Of a stretch of 64,000 bases of DNA, positions 3,861 to 62,445 are shown piece by piece; positions within the stretch are counted from its first letter, which is position 1; the number at the start of each line of letters is the position of its first letter. The DNA comes from Nitrospirota bacterium (GTDB taxonomy: Bacteria > Nitrospirota > Thermodesulfovibrionia > UBA6902). The stretch covers positions 35,337 through 99,336 of the forward strand of contig JACRLN010000024.1 of assembly GCA_016215115.1 (NCBI GenBank). The letters are read 5' to 3'. The position numbers and the translations under genes are program-made. Under the pieces are notes generated by a model that saw only the letters and a list, made by a program, of their open reading frames with translations, did no database searches and had not been told where the DNA came from.

Positions 3861-4106
3861 ATGATGCCGACAACAAAAAAGACATTTTATCGAGAACCTA
3901 ATGATACATATTTCAGAGAGCATTTATCTGAATTTGTTAAAGAACACGGCGGCGACTATGTTGTCATTGCAGGCGGACAATTAATAGGATTTGCCCGTAA
4001 GGATAACATCTCCTCACTTATGAAGAAAGCACGGGAAATGTTCCCTGCCGATATACCAATGTTATCTCCCATACCACGAGAGGAAGAATTAGAGTGCATT
4101 CTCTAA
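3861..4106 (+). CDS. small hypothetical protein, partner of the retropepsin-like gene
   Basis: GGAGGTG ribosome-binding site precedes the ATG at 3861 (MMPTTKK). About 81 aa. Its 3' end overlaps the next gene by 13 bp. Confidence 0.5.
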   Translation: MMPTTKKTFYREPNDTYFREHLSEFVKEHGGDYVVIAGGQLIGFARKDNISSLMKKAREMFPADIPMLSPIPREEELECIL

Positions 4107-4501
4107 TATTCCCCTACCAGTTAATAAATAAAAGGCATATTCCAGTAATCCCTTTAATTCTTCATGGTTCTCGAAATACAAAAATAAGAACAGAGGCATT
4201 TGTTGATTCCGGCGCAACATTCAGTATTTTTAATGTAGATATTGCAAAAAGTCTGATGCTCAATCTCAAAAATGCACGTGAACAGTTTTTCGTAGTCGGA
4301 GACGGCAGCTTCATACCTGCAAAGGTTATAAAAATACCGGTTGAGATAGGCAACGAAAAAATTATCTCAGATATTGCCTTTTCTGAAAAACTGAATATCG
4401 GCTTTAATTTGCTCGGCAGAAAAGGAATATTTGAATATTTTGATGAAATAGCTTTTAATGAAAAAGCAAAAGAAGTTATTTTTAGATGGAAAGCGAGATA
4501 G
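4094..4501 (+). CDS. retropepsin-like (clan AA) aspartic protease domain protein
   Basis: Contains the aspartyl-protease active-site signature FVDSGATFSIF (D-S/T-G-A) followed by the hydrophobic-Gly pattern. GTG start overlaps the upstream small gene. Confidence 0.6.
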   Translation: MHSLIFPYQLINKRHIPVIPLILHGSRNTKIRTEAFVDSGATFSIFNVDIAKSLMLNLKNAREQFFVVGDGSFIPAKVIKIPVEIGNEKIISDIAFSEKLNIGFNLLGRKGIFEYFDEIAFNEKAKEVIFRWKAR

Positions 4502-4507
4502 TAAACT

Positions 4508-4885
4508 ATGCACCCATATAAACGTTCAGCAAGGGTCGGTGATTTAATACGGGAAGAAATCGCTGACATTATATTGAATAAGATCAAACACAAAACACTC
4601 GGCTTCATTACAGTTACCGGAGCAAAGGTTAGCGATGACCTGAGAAATGCAACAGTATTCCTAAGCGTTCTTAATAGCGAAGACGCGGACAAGACAGTGC
4701 GGAAACTCACTGAATCATCGGCTTTTATCAGAGGCGAACTCGGCAGAAGGCTGAAGATGAAGTTCGTCCCGTCTCTTACTTTCAGGATTGACGAGTCAAT
4801 TCAATACGGGATGAAAATTGACAAATTACTCAATAACATTAAATCAGAAAGGAACGCACCTGACGAAGATGAAGATCTCTTCTAA
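4508..4885 (+). CDS. rbfA: ribosome-binding factor A
   Basis: 125 aa. RbfA-like sequence (RVGDLIREEIADII ... ITVTGAKVSDDLRNATVFLSV) in the conserved position after infB and before truB. Confidence 0.85.
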   Translation: MHPYKRSARVGDLIREEIADIILNKIKHKTLGFITVTGAKVSDDLRNATVFLSVLNSEDADKTVRKLTESSAFIRGELGRRLKMKFVPSLTFRIDESIQYGMKIDKLLNNIKSERNAPDEDEDLF

Positions 4886-5849
4886 ACTGCTCAATGTTAT
4901 CAGGCAGAATAAATCTTTTCTTATTGTGGGACATATTAATCCGGAAGGCGATGCAATCGGTTCAGTATTGGCGCTTGCGCTCGGATTGAAAAAGATGGGA
5001 AATAATAACACCTATCCCCTGAGCAAAGACGGCGTGCCTGAAATCCTGAAGTTCCTGCCCTCATCAAGAACAATAAAACAAACTCCCCCTAAAAAAGAAG
5101 TTGATGTCTTATGTATAGTAGACTGCAATACACTGGAACGAACCGGCTTTAAGGAATTAAAAGCGAAACACACCGTTATTATCGATCATCATATCCCGCC
5201 TGATGATGCGGATAAATCCGAACTGTACAGGAAATCGGCGGCAAGCGTCATTGATACCGGAGCCGCGGCAACAGGGATGCTCATTTATAAGCTTTTGTCT
5301 GCGCTCAAGATATCCATCGATAAAAACATTGCCACAAATTTATACACAGCATTACTTGTAGACACCGGAGGATTCAGATATTCCAACACCTCGCCTGAAG
5401 CCTTAAAGATTGCATGTCATCTCATTCAGGCCGGCGCAAGACCGTGGGATATAGCAAAAGAATTATACGAAAGCATCCCCTTCAAATCAATGAAGCTTTT
5501 AGGCCTTTCACTCGCTACCCTTGATAAAAAAGACGGCATAGCGTGGATTACCGCTGCTACGGACATGTTCAAAAAGACAGGCACAACCTACGAGGATTCT
5601 GAAGATTTTGTCGATTTTCCCAGAAAGGTCAAGGATATCGAGGTGGCTGTTTTTTTCAGGGAAGATGATAAAAATGTATTCAAGCTCAGCCTCCGTTCAA
5701 AAGGCAGGATTAATGTCGAAAAGATCGCAAAAAGTTTCGGAGGCGGCGGACATTTCGCAGCCGCAGGATGCAAGATAAAAGGGACTTTGCAGGAAGTACA
5801 GAAAAAGGTCTTTGCGGAAGTAAGGAAAGCTATAAAGGATGCGAAATGA
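4869..5849 (+). CDS. nrnA: DHH-family phosphoesterase NrnA (bifunctional oligoribonuclease / pAp phosphatase)
   Basis: DHH motifs (VGHINPEGDAIGS, IIDHH) and the DHHA1 GGGH motif. The ORF-track start at 4818 overlaps rbfA, so the internal ATG (MKISSKLL) is preferred. Confidence 0.75.
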   Translation: MKISSKLLNVIRQNKSFLIVGHINPEGDAIGSVLALALGLKKMGNNNTYPLSKDGVPEILKFLPSSRTIKQTPPKKEVDVLCIVDCNTLERTGFKELKAKHTVIIDHHIPPDDADKSELYRKSAASVIDTGAAATGMLIYKLLSALKISIDKNIATNLYTALLVDTGGFRYSNTSPEALKIACHLIQAGARPWDIAKELYESIPFKSMKLLGLSLATLDKKDGIAWITAATDMFKKTGTTYEDSEDFVDFPRKVKDIEVAVFFREDDKNVFKLSLRSKGRINVEKIAKSFGGGGHFAAAGCKIKGTLQEVQKKVFAEVRKAIKDAK

Positions 5850-15989: not shown

Positions 15990-16675
15990 GGAACACCCTG
16001 AATATTGGTAAAGAACCAAATTTCCAGATAATAGTCATAACATCTGCAATCCTGCATCTGCTTCTGATTACCCTTATAGTCGTTCCGCTAAAAACAAGGA
16101 AAGATGAGTATAAAAGCTATTTTGTGAATCTTGTAGGTCCCATTGAATCTGTCAGAGAAACAAAAGGCAATGAAAATAATCACCTATCCCCTTTAGTAAA
16201 AGAGAATGAACTAAGCAAACCTCTGCCAAAAGCGGATATGTCTTTGGAGCCTTCCGACAAAGTATCAAAAGAAATAAGTAGGATGAGCGCCATAAGTGTA
16301 TTATCAAAACTGAAAAAGAAAAAAGAAGCGGGGACGGCTCATGAGATAGAAATTATAAGGCAAAAAATACAGGCAAGCGTTGCAAAGGGTCCCGGTATTC
16401 CAGGTGCTGTACAATCAATGAAATCCGATTCATATTATTCATTGATTACTCGCAAGATTTGGAGTGAATGGATTTATCCTGAAACCGGTTCTGCAGGACT
16501 TGAAGTGATTATAGCTGTAAAGTTAGACCGGGAGGGAAAGGTTATTTCACACGAAATTGAAAAATCTTCCGGCAACAGCCTCTTTGACCGCTCTGCCTTA
16601 AAAGCAATATCGAAAGCCAGCCCACTGCCGCCGCCTCCCGTTGAAATTGAAATAGGCGTGAGGTTTTATCTGTGA
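15986..16675 (+). CDS. tolA: TolA/TonB-family protein (C-terminal TonB-like domain)
   Basis: N-terminal TM anchor, charged linker, and a C-terminal TonB_C-like domain ending in PPPVEIEIGVRF. Position between tolR and tolB. Confidence 0.6.
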   Translation: MRNTLNIGKEPNFQIIVITSAILHLLLITLIVVPLKTRKDEYKSYFVNLVGPIESVRETKGNENNHLSPLVKENELSKPLPKADMSLEPSDKVSKEISRMSAISVLSKLKKKKEAGTAHEIEIIRQKIQASVAKGPGIPGAVQSMKSDSYYSLITRKIWSEWIYPETGSAGLEVIIAVKLDREGKVISHEIEKSSGNSLFDRSALKAISKASPLPPPPVEIEIGVRFYL

Positions 16676-17949
16676 AAAGTCAGCAGTCAGAAACAAGGAG
16701 TAAGGGGTCAGGAATAAGGGGTTTAATTTCAAATTTTAAATTTCAAATTTTTATTTTTTTACTTATTACTTGTCACTTGTCGCTTGTCACTGTTTCTGAC
16801 GCCAAAGTCTACATCGACATCACATCACCTGCTATTCAGAAGCTCCCAATATCAATAACAGCTAAAGGCGCTCCTGAGGCAAAAGAGATTGAGTCGATCA
16901 TAATAAATGACCTTGATTTCACAGGACTATTTTCTTTTGTCGCTCCGGAGGTCCCCGGGGCTGAGATCATTGTGCGATCTGATGTTGATGTTTCATTAAA
17001 TGAAATAACTGTTCTCTGGTCTATCATTGATTTAGTTGAAAACAAAGAAGCGCTCAAGAAACGAAATACCGCATCCAGAAAAAGTATCCGTGCAATAGCC
17101 CATAACATATCAAACGATATTTATAAATTTATAACTGAAAAGGAAGGGGTTTTCAGGACAAAAATTTCCTATCTTGTATCCGTATCACCGGGGAATAAAG
17201 AACTGTATTTAATGGACTGGGATGGATATAGCCCGATAAAGGTAATACCGGTCGGTTTAACCTCAAGTCATGCATGGTCGAATGACAGCCGTTTTCTCAT
17301 ATATTCATCAGAGAGAAACAGGGCCTGGAAGATATATTTCTTCGATATTAATGATTTCAGAGAAATTGTGCTGTTTTCCTCAAACGGACTAAACCTTGTC
17401 GGGAACTCCTCACCGCGGGATGAGATAGCGTTCTCATCATCCAAAGACGGCAATTCAGAAATATATACTATAAATAAAGACGGAAGCAATCTTCGAAAAC
17501 TTACGCATTCATTCGGAATTGATGTTTCCCCGGTGTTTTCTCCTGATGGATCCTCCATAGCCTTAGTATCAGACAGAGGAGGTTCTCCGCAGATATATAT
17601 AATGGATTCAAATGGAAGCGGGATAAGAAGAATAACGTTTGAAGGTTCATATAACACATCTCCCACATGGTCTCCTGACGGAAAATGGATAGCTTATACC
17701 GGAATGAAGGATGGCAAAAATCAGATTTTCATGGTAAAATCTGACGGAACAGGACTAAGACAACTTACTTTCAACGGTAATAACGAAAGTCCATCATTGT
17801 CTCCCGATGGTCTGTTTTTAGCATTTGATTCTGACAGAGATGGCAAGCGCGGTATTTACATTATGCGACTCAATGGAGATGAACAGAGAAGGATTACACC
17901 AAAGGATACAAAAGCCATGGCGCCAAAATGGTCGCCGTATTTTAATTAA
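16672..17949 (+). CDS. tolB: Tol-Pal system beta-propeller protein TolB
   Basis: TolB N-terminal domain plus a WD40-like propeller with repeated SPDG motifs. The N-terminal extension and signal-peptide region are encoded by a 7-mer tandem repeat (ACTTGTC x3). Confidence 0.8.
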   Translation: MKSQQSETRSKGSGIRGLISNFKFQIFIFLLITCHLSLVTVSDAKVYIDITSPAIQKLPISITAKGAPEAKEIESIIINDLDFTGLFSFVAPEVPGAEIIVRSDVDVSLNEITVLWSIIDLVENKEALKKRNTASRKSIRAIAHNISNDIYKFITEKEGVFRTKISYLVSVSPGNKELYLMDWDGYSPIKVIPVGLTSSHAWSNDSRFLIYSSERNRAWKIYFFDINDFREIVLFSSNGLNLVGNSSPRDEIAFSSSKDGNSEIYTINKDGSNLRKLTHSFGIDVSPVFSPDGSSIALVSDRGGSPQIYIMDSNGSGIRRITFEGSYNTSPTWSPDGKWIAYTGMKDGKNQIFMVKSDGTGLRQLTFNGNNESPSLSPDGLFLAFDSDRDGKRGIYIMRLNGDEQRRITPKDTKAMAPKWSPYFN

Positions 17950-18594: not shown

Positions 18595-19632
18595 ATGAAA
18601 AGGAAATTATATATGAGATTAAAGAATCTTAAAAACAGCCTTTTCATTCTATCCGCTGTCTTCTGTCTTCTTTGTTCTGTTCTAATATTCACCGGATGCG
18701 CTACAACAGAAGATGTGAATAGAACGCAGTATGATACCAATTTATTAAAAACCGAGGTCCGGGATATAAAGGAAAAATTATCTTCACCGCTTCAAAAGGA
18801 AAAACTTGTCACGCTTGACAAAAAACTGCAGGAAATTCAGAGCACACAGGAATTAACTTCTAAATCAGTTTCAGACCTGCTGATTCAATTCCAGTCTCTC
18901 ACAACAGAATTCCGTGTTCTTACCGGCCGCTTTGAAGAATCACGCTATTATGCTGAAAAAGTTTCGACAGAAATGAAGTCTGAAAAAGAAAAACTTGCCG
19001 CTCAATTGAAGGAGTTGGAACTCTCAATTGATGATTTAAAGAAAAGGGTTGCATTAGCGGAAAAAATAGCCTCTCCTGACTTGAAGGAGGAAGCAAACCC
19101 GGCAGAAGAGAAGAAAACTGTTGAAGAAGCAAAGACGGTCGAGGAAACGAAAAAGGCTCAGGAGTCAGAAAAGAAAGGGCTCGAGAAACCTGAAGATAAA
19201 AAAGAAGCTCAAAAAACTGAACGCAAGAAAGAAATAACAAAAACGGATGTGAAAGATGTCTATCTAACCGGTTATCAGGCCTTCAAGGAAGGCAAAACTG
19301 CGGAGGCAAGAGAAAACTTCATGTCTGTGCTCAAAGATTATCCTGACAATGAATATTCGGACAATGCGCGTTTCTGGATGGCTGAAAGTTACTATAAGGA
19401 AAAGAACTATGAAGACGCCATCCTTGTATATGAAGAACTTTTAAAAAAGAATCCTAAAAGCGACAAGGCGTCAGGCGCATTGTGGAAGCAGGGATTGTCT
19501 TTTTATGCTTTGAAAGACGAAAAGACAGGCAAGATAGTTCTGGAGAAACTGATAGAGCAATTCCCAAATTCTGAACAGGCACTGCTTGCAAAAAAGAAGC
19601 TTGGCAAAACCCCCCCTTCAAAGAAGAAATAA
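18595..19632 (+). CDS. cpoB: Tol-Pal cell-division coordinator CpoB/YbgF (coiled coil + TPR)
   Basis: Lipoprotein-like signal (LIFTGC), a long coiled-coil region and C-terminal TPR repeats, last gene of the tol-pal cluster. The start may be at the downstream Met (MRLKNL). Confidence 0.7.
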   Translation: MKRKLYMRLKNLKNSLFILSAVFCLLCSVLIFTGCATTEDVNRTQYDTNLLKTEVRDIKEKLSSPLQKEKLVTLDKKLQEIQSTQELTSKSVSDLLIQFQSLTTEFRVLTGRFEESRYYAEKVSTEMKSEKEKLAAQLKELELSIDDLKKRVALAEKIASPDLKEEANPAEEKKTVEEAKTVEETKKAQESEKKGLEKPEDKKEAQKTERKKEITKTDVKDVYLTGYQAFKEGKTAEARENFMSVLKDYPDNEYSDNARFWMAESYYKEKNYEDAILVYEELLKKNPKSDKASGALWKQGLSFYALKDEKTGKIVLEKLIEQFPNSEQALLAKKKLGKTPPSKKK

Positions 19633-44726: not shown

Positions 44727-44818
44727 GTAGGGGCGATCCGGTGGATCGCCCCTACGAGAGGACACAAAAAGGGCACGTCGCGACGTGCCCCTACAGGGCG
44801 TATGCCATACGCCCCTAC
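44727..44818. repeat. Family C palindromic (REP-like) repeats, three consecutive palindromes
   Basis: GTAGGGGCGATCCGGTGGATCGCCCCTAC, then the perfect palindrome GGCACGTCGCGACGTGCC, then GGGCGTATGCCATACGCCC. Followed at 44840-44880 by an 8-mer array (CTTTTGCA CTTCTGCT CTTTTGCA CTTTCGCG). Confidence 0.8.
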
Positions 44819-44938
44819 TTTATTGCTTACGCCCTTCCCCGCTTTTGCACTTCTGCTCTTTTGCACTTTCGCGCTCTTGACATTGTTCGGAAATAGCGTA
44901 TGATTTAATATGTAAAGCAAAAAAACAGGAGGTGTGCG

Positions 44939-45358
44939 ATGAAAACTGTAAAACAACTTTTGTTTGCCGCCCTCATAGGGCTTCTCATGGTTTCCGTGGC
45001 AATGGCACAAGAGAAAGCAAGTCAAACTGCCGAGCCGGGCCCAACCACAACCTATCAGGCCAAGTTTCCAATCACCATTCAGGGCGGAGAATATGATATG
45101 AAAACCGTCATAATAGATTTCCCTCAAGGGGTGGGGATGCCTACACATATGCATGGCGGACACGTACTTGTGATAGTACTGAATGGTGAGATGACACTCA
45201 AAGAGAAAGGCACAGAGAGGATAATAAAAGCCGGAGAAAGCTGGACTGAGAATCCCGGCAATCACCACTCAGTCGTCAATGCAGGCTCTACCACTGCCAG
45301 GGTTGTGGTTAACATGCTGCTGCCAAAAGGCGCTGAGGCTACCACGATAATTAAGTAG
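44939..45358 (+). CDS. secreted cupin-domain protein
   Basis: Signal peptide (LLFAALIGLLMVSVAMAQE). A cupin_2-like core (PTHMHGGHVLVIVLNGEM ... NPGNHHS). Confidence 0.6.
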   Translation: MKTVKQLLFAALIGLLMVSVAMAQEKASQTAEPGPTTTYQAKFPITIQGGEYDMKTVIIDFPQGVGMPTHMHGGHVLVIVLNGEMTLKEKGTERIIKAGESWTENPGNHHSVVNAGSTTARVVVNMLLPKGAEATTIIK

Positions 45359-45426
45359 GGGCGATCCGGTGGATTGCCCAAGTGTGGTATCGGGGAAAAA
45401 AGGGCGACCCGCCGGGTCGACCCTAC
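45356..45426. repeat. Family C palindromic repeats (GTAGGGGCGATCCGGTGGATTGCCC ... GGGCGACCCGCCGGGTCGACCCTAC)
   Basis: Seen directly, downstream of the cupin gene. Confidence 0.75.
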
Positions 45427-45489
45427 GAAAACAAAAACCCCGTTAAAAATCTTCATTCTTAACGGGGATAATATTTTAATCCTGATAAA

Positions 45490-51450: not shown

Positions 51451-51591
51451 TTTTGTACTCCTTTCTTCTTAATGTATTTGGTATCTTCTATTTCAAACGG
51501 AAGATATTTGTAATGGTTAAACTGGAAAACAGGGTAAAACTATAATACATAACACTGTTACAGGTCAAATAAAAAAATCTTATAAAAACAT

Positions 51592-51924
51592 TTACAAATT
51601 TTTCAACCTCACAAAAATCAGCTTGCCTGTCCTTCCTCTTTTGTCCTCTCTTCTGCTTATTGTATTTGTATGAGTATCATAATCGAGCGTCTCCTCTTCA
51701 TAATCCTCCGGCATCAACGTTAATGCCTTATCAATATCGCCCTTGCATAAAAAAGTCAAAGCATCCAGACATATCTCTCCAAGGTTATGCCCTCTGCGGT
51801 CTAATACATACACTGCCCTGCATGTACATATGCCGCCGGTAATCTCAAGTGATTTAATACGAATGTCAACAGGGTTTGCCAGATAATTATCACAAAATGG
51901 ACATTGTAAAGGTTGTCTTCTCAT
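51592..51924 (-). CDS. small cysteine-containing hypothetical protein (CPFC ... CTC ... C...C)
   Basis: 110 aa with an N-terminal zinc-ribbon-like CPFCDN ... GGICTCRAV. Wedged between dsrN and dsrC, overlapping the dsrN stop. Confidence 0.4.
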   Translation of the reverse strand: MRRQPLQCPFCDNYLANPVDIRIKSLEITGGICTCRAVYVLDRRGHNLGEICLDALTFLCKGDIDKALTLMPEDYEEETLDYDTHTNTISRREDKRGRTGKLIFVRLKNL

Positions 51925-53546
51925 GGTTTTATCGAGGTATCCTTAAACTTCCTTGCACATCTCACCAACCCATCCGCCCATTCAGGCGCTCCAATTGCAT
52001 GAAGATGTGTATATGCAGCCAATACATTTTTGTAGCACATTCCGTCTTTGCCATCTACGATACCCTTCCCGCGTCTGACGTTGAATGCAAAATATATTTG
52101 CTCTGAAAATCCCCCTACATCCCCCATTGTAGGGGCGACCCGGCGAGTCGCCCCTACGGTTGAGAGGGGATCTATTTCAAGAACTCGCGAATAATGAAAC
52201 TCATGTCCCTTAAGAACGGTCTTATCGGGAAAGTATTGATTAGCTTTTTCAACCTCAACAATTGTATAACCATGCGCCTGCGGTTTTTTCTCAAGCCCAA
52301 AAGTTATCGGAAGGGCGCCAACCATCGGATATGTCTTGTTGCCTAAAACAAGACTTTTACCAAGATACATCAGCCCGCCGCATTCGGCATATACAGGAAG
52401 CCCGTCCTGAATTGCATCAAACAATGAATTCCTGAAACTTATATTATCAGCCAATGCTATCGCATGTGTTTCAGGGAAACCTCCGCCCATGTAAAGCGCG
52501 TCTATTTCGGGAAGTTTTGTTTCTCTCAGAGGGCTCACTTCGATCAGACTGGCTCCCCTTTTCTCAAGCTCTTCAAAATTCTCCTGGTAGTAAAATTGAA
52601 AAGCAGAATCTCGGATGATACCGATTTTGACTACGGAGCTGGAAGTTGGAGGTTGGGGGTTAGCTTGACCCTTGACACTAATCCCTAATCCCTTATCCCT
52701 TATCCCTGTCTCCAGAGGAGACGCTTCATTGGCAATTTTCAATACTTGATCGATATCAATATATTTCTCTCCTATGTCAGCAACTAATGCCAAAGATTCT
52801 TCAACGTCCTGCCGTTCCTGGAAAGGGGTTAAGCCCATATGCCTTTCAGGAAAAGGGTCTTTCTTTAATCTTGGGATGGCGCCCACCACAGGCAATTTAC
52901 ACCTTTTTTCTATTGCTTTTTTTATCAGGGTCTCCTGCCTGTTTGTCGCAATCTGGTTAAGAACGATACCACCTATTGCAACATCTGCATCCATCTGCTG
53001 GCATCCCAGGACCATTGCGGCAATTGTATTGGTTGCCTTTGTGCAGTCAACAATAATTATTACCGGAGTTTTTAATAATTTGGCCAGTTCAGCGGTGCTA
53101 TAAGTGCCCTCATCATCAACTCCGTCAAACAAGCCCCTATTACCTTCGATGATGGCAATCTGAGTGGAGAGTGGAGAGTTTGGAGTTAGGAGTTCGGATT
53201 CTTTGATTTTGGATTTCAGATTTCGAATTTCGGATCTCAATTCTGTCTTACTTTTGCACTTCTGCACTTTTGCACTTCTGTACTTATCATATGTATGCGA
53301 GATAAAAGACCCAAGCGCCTGCTCCGGCTTCATCATGAAGAGGTCCAGATTGTAACATGGAGTCCCGGCCGTCTTTGCAAGCCAGCCCGCGTCAATATAA
53401 TCAGGCCCTTTCTTAAAAGGTGTAACAAGCAAGCCTCTTTTTCTGAATAAAGAAACAAGACATAAAGAAAGGATAGTCTTTCCGCTCCCACCCCTGAGAC
53501 CGGAAACAACTATCCTTGGTATTGAGAAATTCTGTGATTGGGTCAT
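51921..53546 (-). CDS. dsrN: DsrN, cobyrinic acid a,c-diamide synthase (CbiA/CobB) homolog, putative sirohaem amidase
   Basis: P-loop (VVSGLRGGSGKT), a CobB/CbiA ATPase domain and a C-terminal class-I amidotransferase-like domain (GHEFHYS ... YTHLHAIG). Carries three in-frame repeat-derived segments (52107-52172, 52640-52720, 53160-53290). Confidence 0.8.
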   Translation of the reverse strand: MTQSQNFSIPRIVVSGLRGGSGKTILSLCLVSLFRKRGLLVTPFKKGPDYIDAGWLAKTAGTPCYNLDLFMMKPEQALGSFISHTYDKYRSAKVQKCKSKTELRSEIRNLKSKIKESELLTPNSPLSTQIAIIEGNRGLFDGVDDEGTYSTAELAKLLKTPVIIIVDCTKATNTIAAMVLGCQQMDADVAIGGIVLNQIATNRQETLIKKAIEKRCKLPVVGAIPRLKKDPFPERHMGLTPFQERQDVEESLALVADIGEKYIDIDQVLKIANEASPLETGIRDKGLGISVKGQANPQPPTSSSVVKIGIIRDSAFQFYYQENFEELEKRGASLIEVSPLRETKLPEIDALYMGGGFPETHAIALADNISFRNSLFDAIQDGLPVYAECGGLMYLGKSLVLGNKTYPMVGALPITFGLEKKPQAHGYTIVEVEKANQYFPDKTVLKGHEFHYSRVLEIDPLSTVGATRRVAPTMGDVGGFSEQIYFAFNVRRGKGIVDGKDGMCYKNVLAAYTHLHAIGAPEWADGLVRCARKFKDTSIKP

Positions 53547-53571
53547 TAATTAATTTAACAAAGGCGCACAA

Positions 53572-53670
53572 AAAATTTCCCCCCTTTAAAAAAGGGGGGC
53601 AAGGGGGGATTTTCAAGAAACATATTTTTCTCAAAATCTCCCCTAACCCCTCTTTGTCAAAGAGGGGCAT
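53572..53670. repeat. Family A MITE-like repeat, copy 3 (two tandem sub-units)
   Basis: AAAATTTCCCCCCTTTAAAAAAGGGGGGCAAGGGGGGATTTT ... AAAATCTCCCCTAACCCCTCTTTGTCAAAGAGGGG. Between dsrD and dsrN. Confidence 0.8.
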
Positions 53671-53697
53671 CAAGGCTTAATGACAAATTTTATGTAC

Positions 53698-53946
53698 TTA
53701 CTTAATAAGCCCTTTTTCTCTGAGGTATTCTTCGCTCGGAATTTCAACAGAGCTGGCGCCTCCGCCGTAAGAATACATGAGCCTTCCGACATCAATCATT
53801 CCCCTCAGGGCTTTTTTAACTGCATCAGGAGCCTCTGCTGTCTCCTCAGCGAGGGCCTTGATAACATCTTTTTCTTTGAGTTTTTTCTTACCCTTCATCT
53901 TTTCCATATAAGCGAAGATCTTGTCTTGTAATTCTGTTGTTTCCAT
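53698..53946 (-). CDS. dsrD: DsrD (small winged-helix protein of the reductive dsr operon)
   Basis: 82 aa, Lys-rich (MEKMKGKKKLKEKDVIKALAEE ... VKKALRGMIDVGRL), immediately downstream of dsrB. Confidence 0.8.
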   Translation of the reverse strand: METTELQDKIFAYMEKMKGKKKLKEKDVIKALAEETAEAPDAVKKALRGMIDVGRLMYSYGGGASSVEIPSEEYLREKGLIK

Positions 53947-53966
53947 ATCCTCACCTCTTTCTATTT

Positions 53967-54000
53967 TTTGTAGGGGCGACCCGCCGGGTCGCCCCTACAT
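53967..54000. repeat. Family C perfect palindrome TGTAGGGGCGACCCGCCGGGTCGCCCCTACA
   Basis: Seen directly between dsrB and dsrD. Confidence 0.85.
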
Positions 54001-54012
54001 GCCTGTGATTAA

Positions 54013-55089
54013 TTATCTTGAATACTTGAATGCTGCCGATGTCCTGAATGTATCTCTTGCGAAAGTGAAATCGTCAATATGCTGGAATGTGAACTCGATT
54101 CCGGTCAGATTGAAGAAGTCTTCCCATCCTATCCTCTCAATCCATTCGCCAACTCTTTCATGCTTCCTTGCATTTTTTGCATATACCTCAAGGATATTCT
54201 TTATTGCAGCAACAACCTTGGGCCATCTCGGCGGTTCATTGTAAAAGAACGGGATTGCCAGTTTCGAGAACTTCGGATTTGTTCTGAGACTGCCGATCTT
54301 TCCGCCCACCACTATCGCCACGCCATCTTCTTCCGGCTTGTGAATGTCAATCGGCGGACATACGGTGAAGCAGTTTCCGCAGTACATGCATTTATCCTCA
54401 TTGATTGTTACTGATTTGTCTTTCGGATTGGGTCTGATTGCCGATGTCGGACACGATGCGACTGTTGTCGGAATCTCACATACTTTAGGCACAAGTTCAT
54501 GATTGATTGTCGGCACTTTTCTGTGCACGGCAACTACAGCTATATCAGAACAGTGAACAGCGCCGCACATGTTAACGCAGCATGCAACTGCAAGCCTTAC
54601 TTTATTGGGCAGTTCTTTTGTTGTGAAATATTCATAGAGATCATCCATTATCGCCTTTACCAATCCTGAGGCATCGGTACAAGCGCTGTGGCAGTGTACC
54701 CATCCCTGTGTATGGACTACGTTACTGACTCTCGGTCCGATACCGCCAACTGAATATTTTTTTGCCTTCAGTTCTGCTACAAGAGGATCTACCTTGCTCT
54801 GGTCGGACACGAGAAATTCCACGTTGTTTCTTGTTGTGAAACGGAGGTATCCGTCACAGTATTTCTCTGACATATCGCAGATTTCACGGATAGTCTCGGT
54901 GCTTAAAATCCTTGGTGATGCAACCCTTACCGTATAAAGCTTATCGCCGCTTTCTGCAACATGCACCATTGTGCCGCCGCTCAAAACCTCATGATATTTC
55001 CATTTGCCGTAGTTTTTCTTTATTACAGGCGGTATAAACTGATCATATTTAGGTGGTCCAATATCTGTTTGTCTTTTTGGTAATGCCAT
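54013..55089 (-). CDS. dsrB: dissimilatory sulfite reductase beta subunit
   Basis: 358 aa. Sirohaem/[4Fe-4S] Cys motifs ([21 protein letters not shown]) and a ferredoxin-like insert ([10 protein letters not shown] ... [12 protein letters not shown]). Confidence 0.9.
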
Positions 55090-58488: not shown

Positions 58489-60675
58489 ATGGAGCGGGAA
58501 AGCAGGATAAAGGACGAAATTATAGGCATCCTTGCCATTCTTATCGGTCTCGTTGTCATCATAAGCATTATAAGCCACAACCGCTGGGATCAATCACTTT
58601 TTACCTATAACACTTATGAATTAAAAAATCTTCTGGGCCGTTTCGGGGCCAACCTATCAGAAATCCTTCTGCAGGCTGTCGGTCTTTCCTCCTATATAAT
58701 TCCAATAATCTTTCTGATTTTTGGAATAAAGAAGGTTTTTGGCAAAGCAACAAACCAGAAACCTGTTTTATTTATTGTTACAGTCGTAATCCTGATTATT
58801 TCAACATCCTCGCTCTTTACTCTTTTCCTCGGAGGTGATTCCGGCGGCGCTGCAGGAGTATTAATAACAGAGCTGACCAATAAAACTGTTTCATCAATCG
58901 GTTCTCTGCTGCTTTTTGCAACCTTAACGCTTGTTTCTCTGATGTACATTATTCAATTCTCTGTAGCAGATCTGGTAAGAAAGACAAAAAGCAAAATAAT
59001 TTTTGGCACCCAGGCAATCTCTGCCGTAGCGGCTAAAAAGAAAGAGAAAGAACAGCCACAAATAAAAGAAAATAGCGCCACTTCTGAAATACCGGTTCAG
59101 CCGGAGATCGCAGAGCCGGTAGAAATGCCGGAAATACCAAGTATTCAGGAGCCCCTGCCTCTTGCACCCGAGGCAAGAATGAAACCAAAAGAAAAACCTT
59201 TTATGAAACCCTCGGAAAAGGTCGAAGGAGATTATAAACTCCCCGGCGTTGATCTTTTAAAAGACCCTTCACCGTCAAAGTCCAAACCTACAAAAGAAGA
59301 GCTGTTACAACAGTCTGAATTGTTAGAGAAAAAACTCCAGGACTATTCAATTGAAGGAAAAGTCACTTATGTGTCCCCCGGTCCGGTTGTAACAATGTTT
59401 GAATTCGAACCTGCGCCGGGCATTAAGATCAATAAAATCATGTCTCTTTCAGATGACCTTGCAATGGCGATGAAGGCAACGAGCATCCGCATTTCACCAA
59501 TACACGGCAGGTCCACGCTCGGCATCGAAGTGCCAAATCAGGAACGAGAAGATGTTTGTTTGAAAGAGCTTATTGTCTCTGATATATTCAGGAAAAGCCC
59601 TTCAAAATTGACCATCGCTCTCGGGAAAGACATATTCGGAACGCCTGTCATGGCGGACCTGAGCAAGATGCCTCATCTTCTTATTGCCGGAGCAACCGGC
59701 TCCGGTAAAAGCGTTGGAATGAACAGCATCGTGTTAAGCCTTTTATACAGGGCGACGCCAAAAGAAGTTAAGATGCTTATGATTGACCCCAAGATGCTTG
59801 AGCTCTCCGCTTATGCTGAAATTCCGCATCTTCTCATGCCTGTCATTACCTTGCCAAAAGAAGCTTCAAATGCGCTGAAGATGCTGGTATTTGAGATGGA
59901 GCGGCGTTACAGGCTTCTCGCAGAATCAGGGGCCAGGAACATCGAGACATACAATAAGAAATTTGAAATTTCAAATTTCAAATTTCAAATTAAAGAATCA
60001 GATTTTGAATCTCATTCTGCAACTGAACGTGAACCTCTCCCCTATATCGTTATCTTCATCGACGAACTTGCCGACCTCATGTTTGCGTCAGGACACGAAG
60101 TGGAAGACTCTATTGCGCGTCTGGCGCAGATGGCGCGGGCCGCCGGAATACACCTGATCCTGGCAACGCAAAGACCGTCTGTTGATGTAATCACGGGAAT
60201 AATAAAAGCTAACTTTCCATCAAGGATATCTTTTCAGGTCTCATCGAAACTGGACTCCCGGATAATCCTCGATACATACGGTGCAGATCAATTGTTAGGC
60301 AAAGGCGACATGCTCTTTGTCAGTCCGGGCAAAAAAATCAAAAGAATTCACGGCGCATATGTGAGTGAAGAAGAAATGAAACATGTTGTGGATTTTATTA
60401 AGACACAGGGCGGGCCTGATTATACATTGTTCGAGGATATTACCATTGAATCACGGGAAGGGGAGTTATCTGAGGACAAAGATGAACTCTATCTGCAGGC
60501 AAAAGATATTGTGCTGTCCACCGGTCAGGCGTCGATTTCATATATACAGCGCAGGATGAAAATAGGATACAACAGGGCAGCAAGGATTATGGAAATGCTC
60601 GAAGAAGAAGGCGTTGTCGGCCCTCCGGGTGAAGCTGGGAAACCAAGGGAGATATTATGGAAGAGAAAACAATGA
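58489..60675 (+). CDS. ftsK: DNA translocase FtsK/SpoIIIE
   Basis: Four N-terminal TM helices, a Pro/Glu linker, the motor domain (Walker A AGATGSGKSVGMNS, Walker B IVIFIDELADLM) and a C-terminal winged-helix gamma domain. Contains a heptamer-repeat-derived segment at about 59950-60010. Confidence 0.85.
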   Translation: MERESRIKDEIIGILAILIGLVVIISIISHNRWDQSLFTYNTYELKNLLGRFGANLSEILLQAVGLSSYIIPIIFLIFGIKKVFGKATNQKPVLFIVTVVILIISTSSLFTLFLGGDSGGAAGVLITELTNKTVSSIGSLLLFATLTLVSLMYIIQFSVADLVRKTKSKIIFGTQAISAVAAKKKEKEQPQIKENSATSEIPVQPEIAEPVEMPEIPSIQEPLPLAPEARMKPKEKPFMKPSEKVEGDYKLPGVDLLKDPSPSKSKPTKEELLQQSELLEKKLQDYSIEGKVTYVSPGPVVTMFEFEPAPGIKINKIMSLSDDLAMAMKATSIRISPIHGRSTLGIEVPNQEREDVCLKELIVSDIFRKSPSKLTIALGKDIFGTPVMADLSKMPHLLIAGATGSGKSVGMNSIVLSLLYRATPKEVKMLMIDPKMLELSAYAEIPHLLMPVITLPKEASNALKMLVFEMERRYRLLAESGARNIETYNKKFEISNFKFQIKESDFESHSATEREPLPYIVIFIDELADLMFASGHEVEDSIARLAQMARAAGIHLILATQRPSVDVITGIIKANFPSRISFQVSSKLDSRIILDTYGADQLLGKGDMLFVSPGKKIKRIHGAYVSEEEMKHVVDFIKTQGGPDYTLFEDITIESREGELSEDKDELYLQAKDIVLSTGQASISYIQRRMKIGYNRAARIMEMLEEEGVVGPPGEAGKPREILWKRKQ

Positions 60676-61409
60676 AAAAACAGTCAGCGGTAGGCAGCCA
60701 AAAAAATAAAGCAGAAGGTAAGAAGATAAGAAGATGGGAGGATAAGAAATCTCCACTTCTCAACTTCTTAACTTCTCAACTTCTCATACTCTGTTTACTT
60801 GTCACTTGTCACTTGTCACTTGTCACTATTGTTCATGCTGCCACCGTCGACGAAATTGTCAACGACATCCAGAAGAAGTTAGCTGAGATTCATGACATGA
60901 AAGGCACATTCTCTCAAACAAGCTATCTCAAAGATCTCGAGAAAACAGAAACGTATGCAGGCACATTTTACATAAAAAAACCTTCCGGTATAATGTGGGA
61001 ATATATACCCCCCCGCGATGAAAAAATTATAATTAACGGGACGGAAACGTGGGCTTACAAAAAGTCACAAAAACAGGCAATAAAAACCAGATTCAGCAAA
61101 GAAGCGTATAGCCAGGTCCCTATAGCATTGTTAAACGGTCTCGAAAATCTCGGTGCTGATTTTGACATAACGATCATGGAACAGGACACGCTGCATTTGA
61201 AGCCAAAACATCAGATGGGATTCATTCAGGAGATAATCCTCAAGACAAGCTCCAGGAATTTCCCTGTAAAAATGCTTAAAGTATTGGACGTGTACGGCAA
61301 TAAAATTACCATAGAACTCACAGATATAAAAACTAACAATGGACTTGATGATTCACTTTTTACTTTTACAGCGCCTCCGGGAGTTGAGGTGTTTGATATG
61401 ACCCAGTGA
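60657..61409 (+). CDS. lolA: outer-membrane lipoprotein carrier protein LolA (LolA-like fold)
   Basis: Signal peptide, then an open beta-barrel-type sequence (GTFSQTSYLKDLEKTETYAGTFYIKKPSGIMWEY). The start is uncertain (60657 or 60672). The N-terminal extension and signal h-region are encoded by an (ACTTGTC)x4 array. Confidence 0.65.
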   Translation: MEEKTMKKQSAVGSQKNKAEGKKIRRWEDKKSPLLNFLTSQLLILCLLVTCHLSLVTIVHAATVDEIVNDIQKKLAEIHDMKGTFSQTSYLKDLEKTETYAGTFYIKKPSGIMWEYIPPRDEKIIINGTETWAYKKSQKQAIKTRFSKEAYSQVPIALLNGLENLGADFDITIMEQDTLHLKPKHQMGFIQEIILKTSSRNFPVKMLKVLDVYGNKITIELTDIKTNNGLDDSLFTFTAPPGVEVFDMTQ

Positions 61410-62294: not shown

Positions 62295-62445
62295 AAAAAT
62301 CCCCCTGCATCCCCCTTTTTCAAAGGGGGACATTTTTCCCCTCTATTAAGAGGGGTTAGGGGGGTGTTCCCCTCTTTGGCAAAGAGGCTGGGCTCCCGTT
62401 GCAGCGAAGCATCGCAACGGGAAGTGGGGAGATTTTTAAAACTAT
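62295..62445. repeat. Family A MITE-like repeat, copy 4 (largest; extra GC hairpin CCCGTTGCAGCGAAGCATCGCAACGGG)
   Basis: AAAAATCCCCC ... CCCCCTTTTTCAAAGGGGGA ... CCCCTCTATTAAGAGGGG ... CCCCTCTTTGGCAAAGAGG ... GGGGAGATTTTT. Confidence 0.8.

Follow-up and report, generated by a model that had tools for sequence, protein, structure and literature searches.

Repeat-derived segments of several kinds in the reading frame of dsrN, at three apparently permissive positions, in a Nitrospirota bacterium and its relatives

The dsrN gene in a 64,000-nucleotide stretch of contig JACRLN010000024.1 from a Nitrospirota bacterium (the window, to which coordinates refer unless another contig is named) runs through three segments of repeat-derived DNA, and we compared these segments with the closest described systems. 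Rickettsia palindromic elements (RPEs; Ogata et al. 2000, 2002) are small palindromic selfish repeats that lie in-frame, and are translated, in conserved functional genes (PMC10969869, PMC3733652). Intragenic repetitive extragenic palindromes (REPs) of the GTAG/CGTC type occur in several species, sometimes at the same site in orthologs, as in Xanthomonas recB (PMC3733652), and GTAG-tagged REPs and REPINs (REP doublets forming hairpins) are mobilised by RAYT (REP-associated tyrosine transposase) transposases (PMC3733652, PMC3116915). [quoted passage not shown] Heptamer simple sequence repeats (SSRs) have been described as heptanucleotide repeats of cyanobacteria and as G-rich heptamers with a four-unit bias in Xanthomonas and Nostoc (PMC4692102), and the TAACTGA repeats of Beggiatoaceae lie mostly at protein ends (PMC4679880). 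In-frame REPs and MITEs outside Rickettsia are thus already known (PMC3733652, PMC10969869), and a preliminary description of this DNA, which regarded in-frame repeats as rarely described outside that group, put the matter too strongly.

The dsrN gene occupies 51921..53546 on the reverse strand and encodes a protein of 541 aa, to which the public protein P0001, from a metagenome-assembled genome record, is identical. All 541 codons are open, and the frame passes without interruption through every repeat segment, as had been observed before. Pfam recognises CbiA (PF01656) at residues 12–230 and GATase_3 at residues 307–517, with a further match to AAA_26, and the protein scores 400.5 bits against the NCBIfam CobB model NF002204 (cut-off 254). 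The domain layout is accordingly an N-terminal CbiA/MinD-type ATPase followed by a C-terminal GATase_3 glutaminase. We refer to the three segments, all on the reverse strand, in protein order as site 1 (53160..53294, aa 85–129), site 2 (52626..52721, aa 276–307) and site 3 (52107..52172, aa 459–480). The locations proposed earlier for them were borne out: the site 3 peptide maps exactly to 52107–52172, the peptides of sites 2 and 1 map to 52638–52712 and 53187–53285, and the tandem arrays are recovered by Tandem Repeats Finder.

To place the segments in the protein family we aligned DsrN with 120 relatives (63–87% identity) and took lengths between invariant anchors. Baseline relatives have 464–477 aa overall, which agrees with the 450–470 aa previously called typical. 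Site 1 measures 46 aa in the window gene and 6 aa, the baseline, in 70 of the 120 relatives, and is a net insertion of about 40 aa; site 3 measures 31 aa against a baseline of 10 aa in 84 of the 120, a net insertion of 21 aa. Alignments to the CobB/cobB profiles break at both sites and resume without skipped model positions, the CobB alignment picking up again after site 1 at aa 127. Site 2 is different. Its 35 aa correspond to a non-conserved stretch with a median of 32 aa and a range of 23–71 aa among the relatives, so that it is a variable interdomain linker, built here of arrays, with no net insertion. Three insertions had been predicted, to be verified by aligning orthologs; the prediction holds for sites 1 and 3, which most orthologs lack, and fails for site 2, where every ortholog has a linker and that of the window gene is no longer than the rest.

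Site 3, with the peptide DPLSTVGATRRVAPTMGDVGGF, lies between two β-strands of the GATase domain and is a composite in which the ends of one repeat, here called family A, surround a REP-like palindrome. The palindrome (52129..52157; GTAGGGGCGACCCGGCGAGTCGCCCCTAC) is translated as VGATRRVAPT. It is GC-rich and imperfect, with a 13-bp stem and a 3-nt loop, and its termini, GTAGGGGC...GCCCCTAC, give it a GTAG start and a CTAC end. The window holds three exact copies, where shuffled sequences lead one to expect none, and two or three degenerate ones; the other exact copies are at 53970..53998 and 44727–44755, and degenerate copies lie at 45355–45427, one of them at 45402–45427. A sample of 374 kb of related DNA, which is dsrN-centred and hence biased, contains seven intact copies, three of them inside dsrN. 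The relative at locus L082 carries the identical palindrome at site 3, while that at L001 has a different perfect GTAG palindrome in-frame at site 1. The copy at 53970..53998 sits in the dsrB–dsrD spacer at a position that is also occupied in L083. With its length of 29 bp, within the 20–40-bp range, its GC-rich imperfect symmetry and its GTAG...CTAC ends, the palindrome resembles GTAG REPs. It may also be like them in being multi-copy and mostly intergenic, as two of the three exact copies in the window are, and by analogy with the published systems it may be mobilised by a RAYT-type transposase. It departs from them in being nested within another repeat inside a gene and in the small number of copies seen.

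The repeat that we call family A spans roughly 80–100 nt, is non-coding and forms a double hairpin, and its ends are partly complementary. A full-length intergenic copy with two hairpins lies at 62296..62375, and its end matches 52106–52125 at 95%; the family-A end beside the palindrome, GAAAATCCCCCTACATCCCCC, recurs at 62296–62315, 343–362 and 53604–53615. When the codon alignment was inspected by eye, the reverse complement of 62296–62375 matched the site 3 insert of L002 and L084, both of which carry a complete family-A copy in-frame that encodes NTPLTLLKAPTVGL[DN]RGES...GGFSEQIY. The GTAG palindrome takes the place of the family-A interior in both the window gene and L082. Family A is similar to MITEs in being non-coding, in its hairpins and in its presence both in spacers and in-frame in dsrN of several relatives, and perhaps in its partly complementary ends; it is dissimilar in that no target-site duplication could be made out at site 3 and that the window gene retains only its ends.

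The segments had been likened to RPEs, and the likeness is one of behaviour: they lie in-frame in a conserved gene and are apparently tolerated at structurally permissive positions. They are not RPEs. RPE families are about 100–150 bp long and encode a conserved peptide, whereas we find a 29-bp palindrome, a composite of 63–66 bp at site 3 and a 135-bp chain of unrelated arrays at site 1. Moreover, several unrelated repeat classes (GTAG REP-like palindrome, double-hairpin MITE-like element and 7–8-nt arrays) share and exchange three sites of one gene, and the host phylum, Nitrospirota, is unrelated; the elements were set apart on these grounds, without sequence comparison to RPE references.

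Sites 1 and 2 consist of short tandem units. On the gene strand site 1 reads (AAGTGCAR)x4.5, a spacer, (GAAATYC)x~4, (NAACTCY)x3 and (CCACTCT)x2, and the peptide KYRSAKVQ...ESELL (aa 88–120) derives from it. Tandem Repeats Finder reports the same DNA as (GAGTGGA)x2.6, (GAGTTAG)x3.3, a 14-nt doublet at 53205–53235 and (ACTTCTGC)x4.5 at 53250–53285. A copy of the octamer array, 27 nt at 96%, lies at 44842–44868 in an intergenic repeat cluster (44727..44879) that contains the GTAG palindrome mentioned above, two more GC-rich palindromes and an octamer array (44834–44879) related to site 1. Compared with the gene of L081, the window gene has 12 additional codons at site 1, made of GAAATYC units. 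At site 2 the peptide ETGIRDKGLGISVKGQANPQPPTSS (aa 279–303) is encoded by (GGGATWA)x4 at 52678–52707 and (ACCYCCA)x3 at 52640–52661, detected by Tandem Repeats Finder as (CTAATCC)x4.3 and (TGGAGGT)x3.1. The site 2 array is common to L081, L083, L084 and L003, which marks it as older and vertically inherited. A perfect (GGGATTA)n would place TAG in frame at 52686–52694, as the codon after GAT; in the five alleles of the window, L081, L083, L084 and L003 this codon reads AAG, CAT, TAT, CAG and CAG, a pattern that would fit a pull toward the repeat unit by homogenisation, countered by selection against a stop codon. The longest array that we saw inside dsrN belongs to L021 (JACQXB010000024.1, dsrN at 4001..5833), whose protein of about 610 aa has a 10.4-copy (AGTTACA) array in the linker.

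The relatives show that these positions are shared. Site 1 exceeds its 6-aa baseline in 50 of the 120 relatives and site 3 is clearly above its 10-aa baseline in 26 of them. At least six classes of repeat peptide occupy site 1 in one relative or another, including the GTAG-REP peptide SRGVACNAPT, GQVLNLTPQGS, the family-A hairpin peptide NPPLPPFSKGGRGG, TPSPSSPPVKGGE...SPLAGEGQGEG and the octamer-array class, and on a tree built from conserved columns adjacent tips bear unrelated inserts. The same classes also move between positions. Arrays of the octamer class occupy site 1 of the window gene and of the L081 and L002 genes, whereas L008 and L082 carry this class at site 2; family-A hairpin peptides are known from each of the three sites; and the AAGTGCAG array is found at sites 1 and 2 as well as between genes. 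A composite of AGAAGATA and TCTCAACT lies at 60713–60790 in the upstream part of lolA in the window; visual inspection identified it also in the DsrN linkers of L002/P0011, P0022, P0051 and P0070. Since relatives differ in the class at each site and share classes across sites, the three sites are turnover hot spots. The insertions had been pictured as private to one lineage; judged by these sequences, they are instead occupants of three permissive positions that have been colonised and overwritten repeatedly across the clade, and no private accidents. In one relative, L084 (ENA contig_71370), the gene calls for dsrA and dsrB are broken up into a number of short pieces; dsrN is intact there. 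This fragmentation probably reflects indel errors of a long-read assembly, and L084 is therefore unfit for arguments about frame.

Our favoured explanation, to which we assign a probability of roughly 0.75, is that the segments are tolerated in-frame repeat passengers, filtered for frame and stop codons, with turnover. Abundant small genomic repeats (GTAG-type REP-like palindromes, the double-hairpin MITE-like family A and blocks of four to five tandem 7–8-nt units) would repeatedly land or arise in three permissive regions of DsrN, namely, at site 1, a helix-to-strand connection of the ATPase domain, at site 2 the interdomain linker and at site 3 a β-hairpin loop of the glutaminase domain. 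Variants would survive only if their frame were preserved and free of stops, and the translated inserts would be floppy surface peptides that the enzyme tolerates. A resident repeat would then be subject to continuing nested insertion, replacement, and expansion or contraction of arrays, on account of which close relatives would differ in the repeat peptides at a given site.

Several observations weigh against this explanation. A comparison of filled and empty alleles gave no convincing target-site duplication at site 3, and the filled alleles are without five original host codons (EEADT), so that the event there was no clean insertion. The 'GGFSEQIY' alleles of site 3 are discordant with the gene tree, and their patchy distribution needs recombination, multiple losses or site-specific re-insertion. 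The heptamer unit of site 2 has no second copy within the window. The more than 60 units found among the arrays described below argue against a single mobile family as the source of sites 1 and 2. Finally, the surface location of the segments rests on a predicted model, since no CbiA/CobB-type structure has been solved: an experimental one was detectable neither by sequence nor by fold, the best matches being GatD and CTP synthase domains.

To characterise the arrays more widely we analysed the window together with loci L001–L035, L057 and L081–L084, a dsrN-centred sample. Periods 7 and 8 dominate the tandem repeats of the window, and shuffled sequences give none at those periods. We counted 86 such arrays in 310 kb of loci from Thermodesulfovibrionia, whereas 364 kb from Desulfobacterota and other taxa yielded 9. 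Among 100 arrays the number of distinct units exceeds 60, and 56 of the 100 have 4.0–4.9 copies while only 8 have five or more, with or without G/C tracts. In the dsrN-centred loci nearly all intragenic arrays lie in dsrN, in its linker, site 1 and the C-terminal tail, and none was found in dsrA, dsrB, dsrC, dsrM or dsrK; nearly every Thermodesulfovibrionia relative makes its DsrN linker from arrays of its own. Intragenic units are stop-free in all rotations in 51 of 60 cases on the coding strand and in 33 of 60 on the opposite strand, where about 60% is expected at random, and this bias is a visible selection filter.

These arrays resemble the described heptamer SSRs in their tandem 7-nt units, their preference for about four copies, their lineage-specific abundance and their mostly intergenic position. 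They differ in that there are dozens of units, that 8-mers occur as well and that arrays are chained in blocks. Many also lie in-frame in conserved genes, in contrast to the under-representation in coding sequence or the restriction to protein ends reported in PMC4692102 and PMC4679880. The G-quadruplex rationale is inapplicable here because most array units are without G-tracts.

The diversity of units raises the question of whether sites 1 and 2 were made in place, by lineage-specific, slippage-like amplification of arbitrary 7–8-nt words to about four to five copies in weakly constrained DNA such as loops and linkers. We regard this as a serious possibility at somewhat worse than even odds, and it is partly compatible with the passenger explanation. 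The more than 60 units in 100 arrays, the linkers that almost every Thermodesulfovibrionia relative builds from its own arrays, the 12 codons by which the window gene exceeds L081 as additional heptamer units, and the recognised over-representation of heptamer SSRs in some bacteria (PMC4692102, PMC4679880) all favour it. On the other hand, the multi-block composite of AGAAGATA and TCTCAACT recurs in unrelated places, the AAGTGCAG array appears at two sites of dsrN and between genes, and plain slippage fails to predict the limit on copy number. Thus, in-place generation fits the diversity of units, mobility or copying fits the recurring composites, and neither fits the copy ceiling, for whose sharp limit at four to five copies of 7/8-mers we know of no mechanism.

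We tentatively propose, as an idea with a modest chance of being right, that Thermodesulfovibrionia and, judging by the metagenome scan described below, perhaps other lineages possess a so far uncharacterised process or element which makes blocks of about 30 nt, with four to five copies of essentially arbitrary 7–8-nt words and often chained, and that new coding sequence is regularly built from these blocks. The DsrN sites would then be 'cassette' positions at which resident repeats attract more. If this is true, array blocks feed enzyme loops and linkers (DsrN, FtsK) as well as the signal-peptide cores of TolB and LolA ('TCHLSLVT').

The integrity of dsrN bears on whether the segments reflect biology at all. 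Across 30 relatives there is no variation at residues G19, G20, G22, K23 and T24 of the P-loop or at C389, H514 and H516. The dsrN stop overlaps the start of a downstream gene of 110 aa (ATGA), and four close relatives share with the window the gene order dsrA-B-D-N-(110 aa)-C-T-M-K, which makes the DsrN assignment sound. Pfam names DsrA, DsrB, DsrC and an RsbRD_N (DsrT-like) protein among the neighbours; the open reading frame (ORF) of 82 aa in the place of dsrD has no Pfam match and owes its label to position and size alone. In the dissimilatory sulfite reductase system DsrN acts as the siroheme amidase (PMC10504309), and by analogy with that work the window protein presumably amidates siroheme. 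The relatives come from Thermodesulfovibrionia/Nitrospirota bins of groundwater and deep mines. Against nine of them, the ratio of nonsynonymous to synonymous divergence (dN/dS) of the dsrN core is 0.07–0.12, and that of the inserts is 0.34–0.91 on small counts of 20–33 codons; the core is under strong purifying selection and the inserts are under relaxed selection. The gene had been called essential, and it is indeed conserved and important, although strict essentiality is an overstatement.

With these data a pseudogene is excluded: a core dN/dS of about 0.1, conserved catalytic residues and the ATGA overlap are those of a functional gene, and decay, the outcome named earlier as fatal to the repeat account, is not what we find. 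The broader doubt, that the segments stem from mis-assembly of a metagenome bin or from a decayed gene with a chance open frame, draws on the origin of the contig in a metagenome-assembled genome. Repeats are classic sites of assembly error. This doubt, too, is very improbable and close to refuted, since independent assemblies from different studies and environments have homologous in-frame inserts at the same sites, the frame is kept in all assemblies examined, and the selection, catalytic residues and stop/start overlap just given hold for the window gene itself.

To locate the segments in the fold we used an AlphaFold2 model of the window DsrN (mean predicted local distance difference test score, pLDDT, 83.5; predicted template modelling score 0.85). 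Site 1 is modelled as a protruding helical hairpin in which the means of ten-residue blocks over residues 91–130 are 52–66 and residues 117–123 fall below 50; pLDDT is also below 50 at residues 283–300 (site 2) and 462–480 (site 3). On this model the repeat segments may lie at the protein surface. At the RNA level site 3 folds at −46.5 kcal/mol (z = −5.6) into nested inner and outer stems. The ends of the element pair as the outer stem, which consists in part of the conserved host codons GAA ATA. Sites 1 and 2 fold no better than shuffled sequences (z = +0.4 and +1.2), and a structured-RNA role was dropped for them.

The predicted helix at site 1 and the very stable hairpin at site 3 could be taken to mean that the inserts are adaptive, the first as a helical arm for binding a partner and the second as an mRNA hairpin that tunes expression of the dsr operon. 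An insert dN/dS below 1 points in the same direction, as does a synonymous divergence (dS) in the inserts that falls short of that in the core (for the window and L082, 0.05 at site 3 and 0.41 in the core; for the window and L002, 0.59 at site 1 and 1.7 in the core). With 20–33 insert codons, however, the dN/dS and dS contrasts are noisy, and the dS values, small numbers as they are, suggest homogenisation at the DNA level or recent exchange; recent spread or gene conversion by other repeat copies would lower dS equally. At the same sites, moreover, the closest relatives have unrelated sequence or none at all; the model is of low confidence at all three, and the RNA of sites 1 and 2 is at the level of shuffled controls. 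We therefore consider adaptation an unlikely cause.

The strong site 3 hairpin is also the one hint, short of positive evidence, that the segments might be removed before the protein is mature, by RNA processing, translational bypassing or protein splicing. The segments comprise 21–45 codons without intein motifs and match no known RNA family: an Rfam search of 51500–54100 returned nothing at family threshold, and weak chance-level hits were confined to the family-A spacer upstream of dsrN. Frame and freedom from stops are kept across the inserts, which would be needless were they untranslated and so counts against removal, an explanation that we find scarcely credible. The insert peptides are probably retained in the mature protein. 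The tryptic peptides spanning the junctions of a DsrN that keeps its inserts would include VAPTMGDVGGFSEQIYFAFNVR, GLGISVK, GQANPQPPTSSSVVK and TELR/SEIR.

Repeats of the same kinds occur around dsrN and elsewhere in the window. A family-A-like element at 53560..53680 fills most of the dsrD–dsrN spacer. On the gene strand it contains a hairpin, CCCCCCTTTTTTAAAGGGGGG, which with the T-run after it is scored as an intrinsic terminator and might weaken transcription on the way from dsrABD to dsrN. The ORF call at 53413..53673 and a 46-aa N-terminal extension of P0004 are read-throughs of this element.

Within genes of the window the REP-like palindrome and family A occur in dsrN only, whereas in-frame arrays are found in dsrN, ftsK, tolB and lolA, with a weaker case in a cpoB-like gene. 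In ftsK (ORF 58489..60675) an (AAATTTC)x4.7 array at 59959–59991, translated as FEISNFKFQIK, sits in a variable loop of the motor domain between YNKK and PLPYIV. We rejected a net insertion here: the loop is about as long in FtsK of E. coli and P. aeruginosa, and the array thus replaces loop sequence. The N-termini of tolB (ORF 16672..17949; array DNA at 16696–16791) and lolA (ORF 60672..61409; 60713–60827) lie in chained 7/8-mer arrays, and both share an (ACTTGTC)n array that encodes the hydrophobic core of the signal peptide ('..TCHLSLVT..'). Because both starts overlap the upstream gene by 4 nt (GTGA and ATGA), these arrays are coding sequence. A weaker (CTGTCTT)x3.6 array at 18656–18680, in the signal peptide LFILSAVFCLLCSVLIFTGC of a cpoB/ybgF-like lipoprotein (ORF 18595..19632), may be no more than the T/C-rich codon composition of hydrophobic cores.

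Beyond these loci, a metagenome scan for (AGTGCARA)n (L085–L204) found at least 120 contigs with about four to five copies, from soil, marine, rumen and other sources and with GC contents of 0.21–0.63; the motif is too unspecific for tracing the family. Several of the contigs (L137, L138, L117, L176 and L139) are dense in other 7/8-mer arrays, and the phenomenon is therefore not confined to Nitrospirota. A protein-database search with the concatenated insert peptides was uninformative, none of its 17 word candidates having scored.

What is new here is the lineage, the co-occupation and exchange of three sites by three repeat classes, and how often non-triplet arrays serve as coding sequence. 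Free-living subsurface sulfate/sulfite reducers outside Rickettsia carry selfish or slippage-derived repeats inside a conserved metabolic enzyme, and the dozens of natural DsrN alleles with different inserts at three sites are a natural experiment on loop tolerance and on protein sequence seeded by repeats. For annotation, a DsrN of about 500–560 aa in a Nitrospirota bin implies neither fusion nor mis-annotation, the three sites should be masked in DsrN alignments and phylogenies, and peptides such as VGATRRVAPT, PPFSKGG and SPLAGEGQGEG inside otherwise conserved proteins are best read as products of repeats. The ceiling of four to five copies on arrays without G-tracts, finally, questions the G-quadruplex explanation for similar arrays elsewhere.

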